The notes under the pieces: model-generated
Seen by the model: the letters and a program-made list of their open reading frames with translations, nothing else
Databases searched by the model: none
What the model was told of the DNA's origin: nothing
In this document: one piece after another, positions 7,611 to 22,755 of the stretch
Numbering within the stretch: the first letter of the stretch is position 1
Layout of the letters: every line of letters starts with the position of its first letter
Made by a program: the position numbers and the translations under genes
From: a virus
Lineage: Duplodnaviria; Heunggongvirae; Uroviricota; Caudoviricetes
Direction: 5' to 3' (one strand)
DNA length: 64,000 nucleotides
IMG/VR virus record: IMGVR_UViG_3300045988_157791

Positions 7611-9644
7611 TTACTTAACCTGGTGGCCAGGTTTAGCACCAGCATCCGGGCTTAACAGGAAGATATCTTTCCCGCCGGGGCCAGCAGCCATCACCATGCC
7701 TTCAGAGATACCGAAGCGCATTTTACGTGGTGCCAGGTTAGCCACCATAATGGTGTGACGACCAATCAGTGCCTGCGGATCCGGGTAGGCAGAACGAATA
7801 CCGGAGAAGACATTGCGTTTTTCACCGCCGAGATCCAGTGTCAGGCGCAGCAGTTTGTCAGAACCTTCAACAAACTCTGCGTTTTCGATCAGCGCTACGC
7901 GCAGGTCAACTTTGGCGAAGTCGTCAAAGGTGATGGTTTCCTGAATCGGATCATCTGCCAGTGGGCCAGTAACTGGCGCGGCAGCTGCTTTCACTTCTTC
8001 TTTAGACGCTTCCACCAGTGCTTCAACCTGCTTCATATCGATGCGGTTATACAGTGCCTTGAACGGATTTACTTTATGGCCCAGCAGCGGTTGCTGGATA
8101 CCATCCCAGGTCAGTTCTGTATTCAGGAATGCTTCTGCACGTTCAGTCAGTTTCGGCAGTACCGGCTTCAGGTACGTCATCAGCACGCGGAACAGGTTAA
8201 TGCCCATAGAGCAAATCGCCTGCAGATCGGCATCGCGTCCTTCCTGCTTCGCCACCACCCACGGAGCCTGTTCATCGACATAGCGGTTAGCCAGGTCAGC
8301 CAGTGCCATGATTTCACGGATAGCTTTACCAAATTCGCGGCTTTCCCACGCTTCACCAATCACTTCAGCGGCATCAGTGAAGGTTTTGTACAACTGCGGG
8401 TCAGCCAGCTCGCTTGCCAGCACACCGTCAAAACGCTTATTGATAAAGCCAGCGTTACGGGACGCCAGGTTAACCACTTTGTTCACGATATCGGCATTCA
8501 CACGCTGAACGAAATCCTCCAGGTTGAGATCGATATCATCAATGCGCGAAGAGAGTTTCGCAGTGTAGTAGTAACGCAGGCTGTCAGCGTCAAAATGATT
8601 CAGCCAGGTGCTGGCTTTAATAAAGGTGCCGCGAGACTTGGACATCTTCGCGCCGTTCACCGTCACATAGCCATGAACAAACAGGTTGGTCGGCTTGCGG
8701 AAGTTGCTGCCTTCCAGCATGGCAGGCCAGAACAGGCTGTGGAAGTAAACGATATCTTTACCGATGAAGTGGTACAGCTCGGCGGTGGAGTCTTTCTTCC
8801 AGTATTCATCGAAGCTTACGCTGTCGCCGCGCTTGTCGCACAGATTCTTGAAAGAACCCATGTAGCCAATCGGTGCGTCCAGCCAGACGTAGAAATATTT
8901 GCCCGGCGCGTTCGGAATTTCAAAACCGAAGTAAGGGGCGTCGCGGGAGATATCCCACTGTTGCAGGCCAGATTCAAACCACTCCTGCATTTTATTTGCC
9001 ACCTGCTCCTGCAACGCACCGCTGCGGGTCCATGCCTGCAACATTTCGCTGAAAGAGGGCAGATCAAAGAAGAAGTGTTCAGAATCACGCATTACCGGCG
9101 TAGCACCAGAAACCACCGATTTCGGTTCAATCAGTTCAGTCGGGCTGTAGGTCGCGCCGCAGACTTCACAGTTATCGCCGTATTGATCTGGCGCTTTACA
9201 TTTCGGGCAGGTGCCTTTCACAAAACGGTCCGGCAGGAACATGCCTTTTTCCGGATCGTACAGCTGAGAGATGGTGCGGTTTTTAATAAAACCGTTTTCT
9301 TTCAGGCGAGAGTAGATAAGTTCTGACAACTGGCGGTTCTCTTCGCTGTGCGTCGAGTGATAGTTGTCATAGCTGATGTTAAAGCCTGCGAAATCAGTCT
9401 GATGTTCCTGACTCATTTCGCCAATCATCTGCTCCGGTGTGATACCAAGCTGCTGAGCTTTAAGCATGATCGGCGTGCCGTGGGCATCGTCGGCGCAGAT
9501 GAAGTTGACCTCGTGGCCGCGCATTCGCTGGTAACGGACCCAGACATCAGCCTGGATGTGCTCCAGCATATGGCCGAGGTGGATTGAGCCGTTAGCGTAC
9601 GGCAGCGCGCACGTCACCAGAATTTTCTTCGCGACTTGGGTCAT
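7611..9644 (-). CDS. metG: methionine--tRNA ligase (677 aa)
   Basis: Start at [26 protein letters not shown] (HIGH-type motif), KMSKS present, zinc knuckles CPKC/CEVC, C-terminal tRNA-binding domain; I recognise it as enterobacterial MetG. Confidence 0.95.
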
Positions 9645-9801
9645 AGTAGGCATTACTTCTTTGTAGTGAAAAGGGGCTTGATAGTAACAAAATGGCCTTA
9701 TGTCTGCCATGTGATAACAGCATTTCTCATAAATGATTAAATGTCGTAGCTGGAGTACACTACAAGGCGACAATTGCGCAAATTAAAATAAAGGAGACGG
9801 G
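9645..9801. promoter_or_regulatory. divergent metG / apbC promoter region
   Basis: 157-bp AT-rich interval between divergent starts. Confidence 0.5.
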
Positions 9802-10902
9802 ATGAGCGAGTCCAAATCGCCGGATGCCCTGAGAGCAATGGTAGCCGGTACGCTGGCTAATTTTCAGCACCCAACCCTGAAACACAACCTGACTACGCTT
9901 AAAGCGTTACACCATGTTGCGTTGATGGATGACACACTGCATGTCGAACTAATCATGCCTTTCGTGTGGAATAAGCCTTTTGAAGACCTGAAAGAGCAAT
10001 GTAGTGGTGATCTGCTCCGTATCACTGGCGCAAAGGCTATTGACTGGAAGCTGTCGTACAACATTGCCACGCTTAAGCGCGTCAAAAACCAACCAGGCAT
10101 TAATGGCGTTAAGAACATTATCGCCGTCAGCTCAGGCAAGGGCGGCGTAGGTAAATCCTCCACGGCGGTAAATCTGGCACTGGCGTTGGCTGCTGAAGGT
10201 GCGAAAGTTGGTATTTTGGATGCCGATATCTATGGTCCATCAATTCCAACCATGCTGGGCGCGGAAAACCAACGTCCAACCTCACCGGACGGTACTCACA
10301 TGGCACCTATCATGTCTCATGGCCTGGCAACCAACTCTATTGGTTATCTGGTCACCGACGACAATGCAATGGTGTGGCGTGGACCGATGGCCAGCAAGGC
10401 GCTGATGCAGATGTTGCAGGAAACTCTATGGCCTGATCTGGACTATCTCGTTCTCGATATGCCGCCGGGCACTGGTGATATTCAGTTGACGCTGGCGCAG
10501 AACATTCCTGTAACTGGTGCGGTTGTGGTAACTACGCCGCAAGACATCGCGCTGATCGATGCGAAGAAAGGCATTGTGATGTTCGAAAAAGTCGAAGTGC
10601 CGGTACTGGGTATCGTCGAAAACATGAGTGTGCATATTTGCAGTAACTGCGGTCATCACGAGCCAATTTTTGGCACCGGTGGCGCACAGAAACTGGCCGA
10701 GAAATACAACACGCAGTTGTTAGGCCAAATGCCACTTCATATCTCTCTTCGTGAAGATCTGGATAACGGAACACCAACCGTTATTAGTCGTCCAGATAGC
10801 GAATTTACGGCTATTTATCGTGACCTCGCAGATCGCGTTGCTGCCCAAATGTATTGGCAAGGTGAAGTAATACCTGGCGAAATCGCATTCCGCGCAGTGT
10901 GA
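9802..10902 (+). CDS. apbC: Fe-S cluster carrier ATPase Mrp/ApbC (366 aa)
   Basis: P-loop SSGKGGVGKSS and CSNCGHH motif; Mrp/NBP35 family; divergent from metG as I recall for enterobacterial chromosomes. Confidence 0.9.
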   Translation: MSESKSPDALRAMVAGTLANFQHPTLKHNLTTLKALHHVALMDDTLHVELIMPFVWNKPFEDLKEQCSGDLLRITGAKAIDWKLSYNIATLKRVKNQPGINGVKNIIAVSSGKGGVGKSSTAVNLALALAAEGAKVGILDADIYGPSIPTMLGAENQRPTSPDGTHMAPIMSHGLATNSIGYLVTDDNAMVWRGPMASKALMQMLQETLWPDLDYLVLDMPPGTGDIQLTLAQNIPVTGAVVVTTPQDIALIDAKKGIVMFEKVEVPVLGIVENMSVHICSNCGHHEPIFGTGGAQKLAEKYNTQLLGQMPLHISLREDLDNGTPTVISRPDSEFTAIYRDLADRVAAQMYWQGEVIPGEIAFRAV

Positions 10903-15591: not shown

Positions 15592-17277
15592 TCATTTAAC
15601 GCGTTTGAAAACGTATACGCTGACTGTGATCCCTGTGTCTTCAAACTCGTTGGTAAACGACTTCCCTCTGGCATAAACGTAATTATCCATCGTCATCCAG
15701 TCCAGTATTGGCGCAGTGCCCGGCAATACTGCTACAAGACGCCCGCCGACTTTCAGATGCCCCAGCGCAGCCAGCGTGTGCTCTCTATGACGACCAAGCG
15801 AGTACGGCGGGTTCATAACGATTTTGTCGAACTGATAACCTACGTTGTCCTCAGACCACTTTATGAAGTCGCAGCAAATCGTGTTCGTATACCCTTTTCC
15901 GCGCAGGATATCAGCGAAGAGAGGTGCGATTTCTATGCAGGTAACATCTTCCAGATCGGCGTTGATATAGGCCAGAAGATCCCCACGTCCGGCTTGAGGC
16001 TCCAGCAGCTTCTCACCAGACTTCAATTCAGTGGCTCTGGCAACGTACTCAGCAATCAAGCGTGGGGTAGGGTAGAACTGGTGTGATTTTGTATCCGGTA
16101 TTAATCCGGTAGCCACAATCGTATTTAGCGTATGGCCGATCTCATACGGGAACTGCCAGTGCTTTTTCTCCTGCACGCCGCCAATGAAGCTCAGTGTGCG
16201 CTCAAGCTCTTCCACCTGCGACTTCTGGAGAGCTGAATCAGAGAAGTACCATACGCCTTTGTCTTTGCTTAATCGCCCGTCACGAAGCGCAGTGCGAACC
16301 GGCACGGAGATCGTCTTCTGGATTAACCCGAACTGCTTTGGTGCCCGTGTTTTTGGCGCGGTGCGACATGGCGCGGGGATTGCAGCAGGCATACTGTAAG
16401 CCAGCACCTCATTCAACTTCCAGGCCACGTCAGGATGTATTTCAAAGTGAACGTTGCCGTTCTTGAACATCTTCACGCGCATTAGATTTCCATCGACGTT
16501 CATCCAGTCACCGGTCTGGCAGTCGTTTGCCCGATACGCAGCTGATAGCACCTCAGCAGTGCGGTTGATGGTAATAAATTCTTTGTGCGCGAAGAAATGA
16601 AGCAAGACACGCAGATCGTCGATATAGTCCTCTTTGCGATAGTTCACACTAACGCTGTCCCGCCAGAAATCAGAAATGCAGTCAGCGATTATCAGACGTT
16701 CGCTGAAACCGTTTGTCTTATTTGTCTTGTGCGCAGGACTCAGCGCCTTAAACAAGCCATACACGCGCTCAGAGAGATATTTGTGCCTGTCATTCAGCAA
16801 ATTAAGCATCGTGGGTATGACCGTTTCTGCTTTGAACTCCGGTACACCAACGAACTCTTTAACCTTCATCTGGTAGCCGGTTCTGTCAGTTTTGATGACT
16901 TCCTGTTTGCCCTCTATAAACTGCTCGCGCCACTCATCTCGACGGGAAGCTGGCATGATCAGCAAAACGTTAGTCATGTCCGTGACCTTCCTCCAGTACT
17001 CGGCCCAAATATTCTGTTTCACCCATTCCAGATCGACTTTATCCAACCAACCTCGATTTAAACGCGAGCGATCTTCATCTGGTCGATGGTTTAGTCTCAG
17101 CAGGCGATTAATCATGTTGTGGCGTTCGTCGCCATAAACGAAGTCGTGTACCTGATACATGAAGGCGATCTCTTTCTCGCACTCGGCCACAATTTCGTGG
17201 ATGACGTTCATTTCCTGCCGATAGTCGATAGCAGTGTTTGAGTTGGCATCGTCGATGATGGAAAGGGCTGTATTCAT
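15592..17277 (-). CDS. fusion protein: uncharacterised N-terminal domain plus C-terminal N6-adenine DNA methyltransferase (561 aa)
   Basis: C-terminal FYPTP...EPQAGRGDLL (SAM-binding-like) and NPPY catalytic motif; roughly 380-aa N-terminal region without recognisable motifs. Confidence 0.7.
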   Translation of the reverse strand: MNTALSIIDDANSNTAIDYRQEMNVIHEIVAECEKEIAFMYQVHDFVYGDERHNMINRLLRLNHRPDEDRSRLNRGWLDKVDLEWVKQNIWAEYWRKVTDMTNVLLIMPASRRDEWREQFIEGKQEVIKTDRTGYQMKVKEFVGVPEFKAETVIPTMLNLLNDRHKYLSERVYGLFKALSPAHKTNKTNGFSERLIIADCISDFWRDSVSVNYRKEDYIDDLRVLLHFFAHKEFITINRTAEVLSAAYRANDCQTGDWMNVDGNLMRVKMFKNGNVHFEIHPDVAWKLNEVLAYSMPAAIPAPCRTAPKTRAPKQFGLIQKTISVPVRTALRDGRLSKDKGVWYFSDSALQKSQVEELERTLSFIGGVQEKKHWQFPYEIGHTLNTIVATGLIPDTKSHQFYPTPRLIAEYVARATELKSGEKLLEPQAGRGDLLAYINADLEDVTCIEIAPLFADILRGKGYTNTICCDFIKWSEDNVGYQFDKIVMNPPYSLGRHREHTLAALGHLKVGGRLVAVLPGTAPILDWMTMDNYVYARGKSFTNEFEDTGITVSVYVFKRVK

Positions 17278-17380
17278 AATTGCACCATTAAGAAGTGATT
17301 TGTTTAATGGTGCAATTATTTCAAAAATGAAAAGGTACTAAATAGAAATAAACAGGCAATCCTTCAAATAAAGGCATTGG

Positions 17381-22161: not shown

Positions 22162-22755
22162 CTAAGCAGCCTTCTTTGATGGTCTTTTTTTCCTGATCAC
22201 ATTCGCAGGATCATACCCTCCCAGACTTTTCATGACGTCCAAAGGGATCTTGCTTATAGAGTGCCCAGCGTCCTGACAGAATCCTCGAAAAACAACGAGC
22301 ATACTGCCACCTGGGTTGATGTTTACTTCTACCTGACCCAGATTGACGTCAGGCTCGACAAACGCTACGCGGCCACCAGACAGAATAATCGTCTCATTCG
22401 CACACTCTGTTGCACGCTCATACCACTTTGTATCTAGGGATTGAGGAATTAGCATCACTGTTGTAACTCCGCGAGCCTGCTCACGTATAGCCGCATCAAT
22501 CCAGGGGGAGATTTTGGAGTAGGGTGGATTGAGGAAGGCAATTGTACCTGGCTGTCCCCATTCAGATTTCAAAGCATCACGCTCAACGCCTATGAAATTA
22601 GGCAGCTTTGCATTGTCCTTGTTGCAGGCAACGTCAACATCAAATGTCACTCCAAGATAACGTTGAATGGCAGAAAACAGCCAGTCAGGTGTTCTCCAGA
22701 GGTCACGAAGAGAGTTGTCGCGCTTTCGCTGTTTGATTTTTTCGGCTGCAATCAT
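22162..22755 (-). CDS. phage-type DNA N6-adenine methyltransferase (Dam-like, 197 aa)
   Basis: NPPY catalytic motif (IAFLNPPYSK) in a small phage Dam-family architecture. Confidence 0.7.
   Translation of the reverse strand: MIAAEKIKQRKRDNSLRDLWRTPDWLFSAIQRYLGVTFDVDVACNKDNAKLPNFIGVERDALKSEWGQPGTIAFLNPPYSKISPWIDAAIREQARGVTTVMLIPQSLDTKWYERATECANETIILSGGRVAFVEPDVNLGQVEVNINPGGSMLVVFRGFCQDAGHSISKIPLDVMKSLGGYDPANVIRKKRPSKKAA

Follow-up and report, generated by a model that had tools for sequence, protein, structure and literature searches.

The fusion gene and its catalytic core

The sequence analysed here, IMG/VR virus record IMGVR_UViG_3300045988_157791, is a stretch of 64,000 nucleotides (nt) of viral DNA (the window) that carries, on its minus strand at nt 15592–17277, a gene for a protein of 561 amino acids (aa) in which a DUF4942 domain is joined to an N6-adenine methyltransferase core. 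This open reading frame (ORF) is a real, conserved coding sequence. Database cluster P0001 (1,384 members) is 99% identical to the window protein, PHROG 6263 ('DNA methyltransferase') matches the 561 aa end to end (E-value 7e-300), and 360 homologues are present in a database clustered at 90% identity. The gene is kept in SSU5-like elements of Escherichia, Salmonella, Klebsiella, Cronobacter, Xenorhabdus and Providencia. At NCBI the 99%-identical protein is named 'DUF4942 domain-containing protein', and 'DNA modification methylase' and 'YdiA' are names given to some homologues. Five parts can be distinguished in the protein, the boundaries of which were set from two AlphaFold models (one built from 25 homologues, mean predicted local distance difference test score (pLDDT) 82; the second of aa 1–397, pLDDT 82) together with alignments. 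The gene, its parts and their motifs are as follows (pI, isoelectric point).

15592–17277, minus strand: DUF4942-methyltransferase fusion, coding sequence (ORF list; ATG start, intact, 561 aa plus stop)
16912–17277, minus strand: N-terminal helical region, aa 1–122 (AlphaFold secondary structure, conservation profile, pI 5.1)
16849–16911, minus strand: beta-hairpin insertion, aa 123–143 (strands 124–130 and 136–142 in the models)
16363–16848, minus strand: DUF4942 alpha/beta core, aa 144–305 (Pfam PF13708, conservation)
16720–16743, minus strand: LSxxHxTN motif of the DUF4942 core, aa 179–186 (alignment)
16429–16458, minus strand: GxxHxxxHPD motif of the DUF4942 core, aa 274–283 (alignment)
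16093–16362, minus strand: basic linker and small alpha/beta domain, aa 306–395 (models, pI 9.6; conserved GG at aa 366–367)
15595–16092, minus strand: class I S-adenosylmethionine (SAM) methyltransferase core in gamma order, aa 396–561 (no domain after it)
16063–16077, minus strand: FYPTP (motif X), aa 401–405 (sequence)
15979–16005, minus strand: LEPQAGRGD (motif I), aa 425–433 (sequence)
15802–15813, minus strand: NPPY (motif IV), aa 489–492 (sequence)

The original prediction, made from the DNA alone, had described FYPTP, a SAM-binding-like segment and NPPY in this ORF, and all three were confirmed at the positions given above (the second being LEPQAGRGD). They follow the gamma order X (FxTP), I (ExxAGxG) and IV (NPPY/F), are conserved across the family, and lie in a class I SAM-dependent Rossmann fold. 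In the model the catalytic fold closes with a strand at aa 551–559 and the protein ends after it, with no C-terminal recognition domain; no hsdS-like specificity gene is found among the nearby genes, and Pfam detects no nuclease domain within the 561 aa. The C-terminal 166 aa are a TaqI/EcoKI-type N6-adenine methyltransferase core without a following recognition domain, and the proposal that a non-catalytic N-terminal region has been fused to such a core is supported.

When the family profile was compared with PDB sequences, M.TaqI (2.9e-4) and EcoR124 HsdM (3.8e-4) came first, ahead of rRNA methylases. The match to Pfam N6_Mtase (PF02384) is 13.7 bits, under the cut-off of 20.4. To judge from its sequence, the protein appears to work like a gamma-class DNA adenine methylase, a relationship drawn only from fold and profile evidence, but it is not filed here as a standard member of that class because it falls below the N6_Mtase threshold and lacks the C-terminal recognition domain of the M.TaqI type.

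The NPPY motif occurs also in RNA and protein N-methylases, and there are weak NCBIfam matches to KsgA and Erm, as might be expected if the enzyme modified host machinery, either as an RNA methyltransferase producing N6-methyladenine (m6A) in rRNA or tRNA or as a protein glutamine methyltransferase. This is very improbable. It is the DNA methylases M.TaqI and HsdM that the sequence profiles place first, DNA methylases of the N6_Mtase family typically have an FYPTP motif X just ahead of motif I, and members of the present family cluster with other DNA methylases. The relatives found through PADLOC and PHROG are likewise DNA methylases, including giant ones, the core matching PHROGs of phage proteins of 1,259–3,925 aa.

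Part of the basic region that precedes the core (aa 306–395) accompanies the methylase core in other phage proteins. The match to PHROG 9133 covers aa 328–560, tblastn matches begin at about aa 345–357 in phages Dolphis, MR13 and others, and the profile alignment with EcoR124 HsdM begins at position 353. Because the core has no recognition domain, this small basic domain and DUF4942 must supply the engagement or targeting of DNA.

The DUF4942 module, fused and alone

The N-terminal region of about 380 residues had been described as an unknown domain without any recognisable motif. Neither description holds, as PHROG 6263 covers the full length of the protein and this region is catalogued as Pfam DUF4942 (PF13708). 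The match to that domain, at aa 140–295 (nt 16393–16860), scores 74 bits against a cut-off of 25 (E-value 1.7e-20), passes the gathering threshold and covers profile positions 35–187 of 190. The preceding helical region (aa 1–122) is mildly acidic and variable, except at W95, T102, M108-P109 and W116, and the beta-hairpin insertion is present in only about one-fifth of family representatives (gap fraction 0.78 in an alignment of 146 rows).

A profile of aa 1–397 retrieved 1,538 clusters at 50% identity, 420 of them at an E-value of 1e-30 or lower. NPP[F/Y/W] was present in 137 of the 149 newly retrieved representatives that were found by the N-terminal profile alone, the median length being 536 aa, and the fusion is therefore an old and fixed architecture. 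It is fixed across hundreds of sequence clusters that include temperate phages, SSU5-like phage-plasmids and IncHI2 plasmids. One homologue, P0044, is of E. coli type up to about aa 275 and of Klebsiella type after it, which reflects either recombination within the DUF4942 core or a chimera of assembly.

An alignment of 145 representatives with 29–44% identity to the window protein shows the DUF4942 core to be one of the best conserved stretches (about 2.9–3.1 bits per column, compared with 2.7–2.9 around motifs I and IV), and residues L179, S180, T185, N186, G274, H277 and N289 do not vary even among the stand-alone DUF4942 proteins. Comparison of the N-terminal 400 aa or so with solved structures gave no counterpart and no resemblance to any known recognition domain. 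Recognition domains that confer different specificities are variable; the conservation of DUF4942 points to one conserved task rather than to a variable reader of sequence. This speaks against the earlier suggestion of a target-recognition module, as does the occurrence of the domain without a methylase on thousands of conjugative plasmids (described below); nor did the N-terminal region turn out to be the standard recognition domain of a known methyltransferase family. The task would be generic DNA binding, binding of single strands or replication forks, or binding of a host factor. The idea that DUF4942 is an acidic mimic of DNA found no support, as the stand-alone proteins have pI values of 6.0–9.0 and the N-terminal helices one of 5.1, and homology between DUF4942 and DUF3560 was rejected (hhalign probability 0.4%).

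Plasmid leading regions contain each half of the fusion on its own. Matches to the N-terminal query were found in 4,381 plasmids, 3,032 of which are conjugative. In the IncI1 plasmids pHUSEC41-1 and pESBL-EA11, a DUF4942-only protein of 282 aa is encoded by the second gene from the origin of transfer (oriT), from which it is separated only by a small gene of opposite orientation. The stand-alone DUF4942 genes are oriented like psiB, psiA and ardA. In a Serratia MOBP plasmid such a gene is situated within the leading region on its oriT-proximal side, near a gene for a solo LPD29 protein. The positions of the stand-alone genes near the oriT end, with products of 276–282 aa, are as follows.

Locus L007, 8824–9672: stand-alone DUF4942 gene
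Locus L178, 2948–3796: stand-alone DUF4942 gene
Locus L011, 5740–6570: stand-alone DUF4942 gene

The pESBL protein has been described as 'Hp22', and transposon sequencing (TnSeq) found it not to be required for plasmid maintenance or for transfer in laboratory matings (PMC4288162). Genes for DUF4942 are also reported, in papers on the SRL island and on an Erwinia island, beside cbtA/cbeA, radC, klcA and DUF932 (PMC6980539, PMC10587187). As for the other half, the leading region of IncF plasmids encodes a methylase of 187 aa (WP_001298559), between a DUF3560 gene and ssb, that is homologous to the catalytic core (BLASTP 2e-16); the same region carries an EcoGIX-type methylase and an antirestriction protein. 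In one IncF locus (L016, 7506–9477) a DUF3560 gene (453 aa) is followed directly by the bare 187 aa methylase core, and the two may be an analogous two-gene pair of an accessory protein and a methylase without recognition domain.

As DUF4942 is strongly conserved and exists alone, it is plausible that it is an independent establishment module. A possible, if doubtful, reading is that the fusion is a small protein of two functions in the polyvalent style, in which DUF4942 would be an autonomous effector of establishment or anti-defence attached to a methylase that lacks a recognition domain. DUF4942 might then attach to DNA as it enters or replicates, or to a host factor, or it might inhibit a host defence, with the methylase delivered there or acting alongside. 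Solo DUF4942 proteins (267–282 aa) encoded at or near the entry end of IncI1 and Serratia MOBP leading regions are consistent with this, as are the gene neighbours in CP4-like islands (the cbtA/cbeA, radC, klcA and DUF932 genes of the papers cited above) and the large number of conjugative plasmids matched. So too are the retention of the core motifs in the solo proteins, a degree of conservation equal to that of the catalytic site, the existence of the methylase core alone, and the switch of sequence type within the DUF4942 core of P0044. Other facts are less easily accommodated. DUF4942 is not known to have a biochemical activity or a partner, and comparison of folds gave no hint. The solo proteins do not qualify as acidic DNA mimics, nor are they strongly basic; laboratory conjugation does not require Hp22; and the fused parts almost never separate, which would also fit simple structural dependence.

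It has also been considered, as a rather unlikely possibility, that DUF4942 is an autonomous establishment module, with a fold unseen among solved structures, that on its own acts at or near the entry end of conjugative plasmids and, in the fusion, steers a promiscuous methylase without recognition domain onto freshly entered or replicating DNA of the element. For this it may bind, for example, single-stranded DNA, a replication intermediate or a protein of the host replisome, an arrangement that would resemble the dependence on polymerase I reported for the methylase M.EcoGIX. The protein would then be a self-targeting device ('methylate my own DNA only') rather than a sequence-specific orphan methylase.

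Genetic setting and probable role

The 6 kb surrounding the fusion gene share 99.7% identity with E. coli plasmid pM-64-197 (IncFIB, non-mobilizable, 111 kb) and 94–98% with Escherichia phages Cyrano, CMS-2020a and PhiR41_1; in Salmonella phage SSU5 the corresponding gene is 88% identical to the one in the window. Because of these identities the window is part of an E. coli phage-plasmid of the SSU5/pHCM2 type. The gene belongs to a co-directional block that includes Ead/Ea22-like, TerB, RNase H, Dam-family methylase, 3'-5' exonuclease, dihydrofolate reductase (DHFR), thymidylate synthase (thyA) and nrdAB genes, with dnaE farther along the same block of replication and nucleotide-metabolism genes. 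The Dam-family gene confirms the original prediction that the element has two adenine methylases.

22162–22755, minus strand: small phage Dam-family N6-adenine methyltransferase, 197 aa (Pfam PF05869, TIGR01712, PHROG 111)

Its product matches PF05869 with 131.8 bits (E-value 2.5e-38; threshold 28.1) and TIGR01712, the phage N-6-adenine methyltransferase family, with 113.9 bits (5e-33; threshold 97.05), and has NPPY at aa 76.

Palindromes of 6 bp are strongly depleted in the whole window (nt 1–64000), the median ratio of observed to expected being 0.62. CCATGG, GAGCTC, GGTACC, GGGCCC, CCTAGG and GCTAGC do not occur at all, and GAATTC, TCTAGA and GGATCC occur once each, compared with 9–18 expected occurrences from base composition; GATC and TCGA show no depletion. 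The depletion suggests that restriction sites are avoided alongside the action of the two methylases.

Two further observations concern the backbone of the element. In pM-64-197, the closest record, ISEcp1-blaCTX-M-64 is inserted into the phage-plasmid backbone (locus L012, 8238–10628). The window also contains host-like genes at nt 7611–9773 (minus strand) and nt 9802–10902 (plus strand), named in the near-identical plasmid as methionine--tRNA ligase (metG) and iron-sulfur carrier ApbC, in a segment with a G+C content of 0.50, compared with 0.45.

The fusion gene is also found in quite different settings. Distant homologues in Variovorax and in an enterobacterial chromosome lie in lambdoid prophages, between repressor/replication genes and late genes, where they adjoin N4/N6 and C5 methylases, and IncHI2 megaplasmids carry a 563 aa copy close to a Dam gene. 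Since a first scan gave almost only near-identical phage-plasmids, viral contigs were chosen by means of distant homologues, and 139 flanking proteins were surveyed from those diverse contigs (about 55 of 72) where the methylase gene could be located. Among these neighbours, the Pfam families that recurred most often (the top 25) include NinG, NinB, DnaT, IstB/DnaC-like proteins, integrase, antiterminator Q, C5 and N4/N6 methylases and R67-type DHFR, and none of the 25 is a restriction-enzyme family. The R67-type enzyme (Pfam DHFR_2) was seen within two genes of the methylase in temperate-phage contigs (six sampled neighbour proteins, loci L097–L160). Copies in the Pseudomonas phages Dolphis (L005, 1936–3624) and MR13 (L006, 1969–3600) are labelled 'RE endonuclease' and 'restriction alleviation protein, Lar family', names that look wrong because Pfam shows DUF4942 and a methyltransferase core.

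Matches to defence systems raise the question of whether the protein might be a modification subunit, belonging to a restriction-modification system or to a methylation-associated defence system carried by the element. Its core matches PADLOC profiles of mad2 (5e-15), type II methylases (2.8e-10) and type IIG methylases, and some database homologues are named 'restriction methylase' or 'RE endonuclease'. All of these profile matches are limited to the catalytic core, and no nuclease, helicase or other partner gene is adjacent in the window, the plasmids, the prophages or the sampled viral loci. Within the window the neighbours are hypothetical genes and those of Ead/Ea22, TerB, RNase H, Dam, exonuclease and nucleotide metabolism, with no nuclease partner among them, and no recognisable restriction-enzyme family turned up near the gene in any of the four settings. 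A role as a defence subunit is therefore extremely improbable, and the defence function that had been entertained for the N-terminal domain finds no backing here, as only the methylase core gives a weak match to defence-system profiles.

The anti-restriction role that had also been proposed fits these contexts: no recognisable restriction-enzyme family turned up in them, homologues in early or nin regions of phages adjoin other orphan methylases, and relatives of the two halves of the protein are found in leading regions. On balance it is fairly probable that this phage-plasmid gene specifies an orphan N6-adenine DNA methyltransferase, unaccompanied by a restriction enzyme and built from two establishment modules, that helps the DNA of the element to escape host restriction. 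The enzyme would be made during replication of the element or on its entry into a new host, and would methylate adenines of the element's own DNA. This methylation, together with the small Dam-type methylase and the avoidance of palindromes, would allow the DNA to escape the restriction enzymes of the host.

Position within a block of replication and nucleotide-metabolism genes (dnaE, nrdAB, thyA, RNase H, exonuclease), and conservation in the SSU5-like elements of six genera, could instead suggest that methylation regulates the phage-plasmid's own replication, packaging or lysis-lysogeny switch rather than giving protection from restriction. Dam methylation regulates packaging in phage P1, and a highly conserved DUF4942 core would fit a single conserved target. 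Such epigenetic housekeeping appears improbable, as lambdoid prophages, which are unrelated, and IncHI2 plasmids share the architecture despite having different replication and packaging systems, and relatives of both modules lie in plasmid leading regions, the known content of which is anti-defence and establishment genes.

A stable hairpin immediately precedes the methylase start codon and extends into it.

17276–17319, minus strand: hairpin with a 16-bp stem, perfect inverted repeat AATTGCACCATTAA/TTAATGGTGCAATT (sequence, RNA fold)

The folded RNA has a predicted free energy of -20.6 kcal/mol (z -5.4), and the 3' arm of the hairpin holds a GGUG Shine-Dalgarno-like element and the AU of the start codon. 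There is no second copy in the window. The hairpin may be a control element for translation or an operator; in SSU5 it is degenerate and in Klebsiella pJN2-26 it is missing, and any regulatory role is therefore specific to this lineage and unproven.

Several points weigh against an anti-restriction methylase. As the hairpin occludes the start-codon region in this lineage, expression may be low or conditional, and a scan for sigma-70-like promoters around the gene found none. The solo DUF4942 protein Hp22, as noted above, is dispensable for maintenance and transfer in the laboratory. The searchable literature yielded no methylation data and no biochemical or other experimental study of the family, only incidental mentions of DUF4942/PF13708 and of orphan methylases of SSU5, pHCM2 and phage-plasmids, and we infer the substrate (DNA rather than RNA), the motif, the timing of expression and the protective effect.

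Among the major carriers of resistance genes in Enterobacteriaceae are the SSU5/pHCM2-like phage-plasmids and the IncHI2 and IncI1 plasmids, and the methylase fusion or a single half of it is present in thousands of these elements. If the enzyme does protect DNA from restriction, it would add to the range of hosts open to these vectors. If DUF4942 is an independent module of establishment or anti-defence, this would provide a function for the oriT-side gene of IncI1 plasmids as well as a new anti-defence fold. A small adenine methylase core without recognition domain could also interest users of non-specific m6A tools for chromatin analysis and footprinting. The protein itself is already in databases; the joining of two modules that are found separately in plasmid leading regions was not found in the searchable literature.

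Comparison with known methylase systems

The classical enzymes nearest to the core, M.TaqI, M.BseCI, CamA and the type I HsdM proteins, have a C-terminal recognition domain or a separate HsdS subunit, whereas the window protein ends after the core. It also differs from the M.TaqI/HsdM group in having an N-terminal module of 400 aa without structural counterpart, and the similarity to that group is marginal (E-value about 3e-4).

For M.EcoGIX, an unrelated methylase encoded in a plasmid leading region, protection of an entering plasmid from restriction has been demonstrated by experiment (PMC7736820), and the strategy is thus known to exist. Together with M.BceJIII it exemplifies the single-strand-specific orphan m6A methylases of mobile elements, which serve here as a functional model of a promiscuous methylase active during establishment, and as a working analogy only (PMC7736820). 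Membership of the M.EcoGIX family was rejected, as M.EcoGIX is a beta-class enzyme of 227 aa with DPPY and Pfam N6_N4_Mtase, compared with NPPY in gamma order in the present protein. The window protein has no match to PF01555, and the EcoGIX-type 'DNA methylase' of IncF and IncI1 plasmids is a separate gene.

Polyvalent proteins carry a TaqI/EcoKI-like methylase with LPD36 on its N-terminal side and a helicase of superfamily 2 (SF2/SNF2) on its C-terminal side (PMC5512222). The dyad of the P1 DarB type shares with the window protein a TaqI/EcoKI-like core, used by phages and plasmids against restriction, and a family-specific N-terminal domain before that core. Unlike DarB, the window protein has by Pfam neither an SF2 helicase nor LPD36, so that the dyad is lacking and only the core matches the PHROGs of giant proteins; P1 is absent from the tblastn matches at an E-value of 1e-3. 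In further contrast to DarB, the 561 aa protein is of cytoplasmic type and encoded in a replication block, and nothing indicates that it is a virion protein.

The phage Dam family (PF05869, TIGR01712), of which the gene at nt 22162–22755 is an example, likewise comprises orphan adenine methylases of temperate phages with a presumed anti-restriction role, but belongs to a different catalytic family, differs in size and has no accessory domain. The closest recognisable relative of the core outside the family is the IncF protein WP_001298559, named 'class I SAM-dependent methyltransferase' (33% identity over 121 aa, E-value 2e-16, shared NPP[FY]SxGxxxxH), which is also encoded among establishment and anti-defence genes but is a bare core without DUF4942, and as far as could be found uncharacterised. 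Conversely, the stand-alone DUF4942 proteins (pESBL Hp22, also named 'YgfB', and those of Serratia MOBP plasmids and of SRL and CP4-like islands) have no methylase, are 267–282 aa in length and are only about 20% identical, yet they belong to mobile elements, have the same Pfam domain and keep both the LSxx[HY]xTN and the GxxH motifs.

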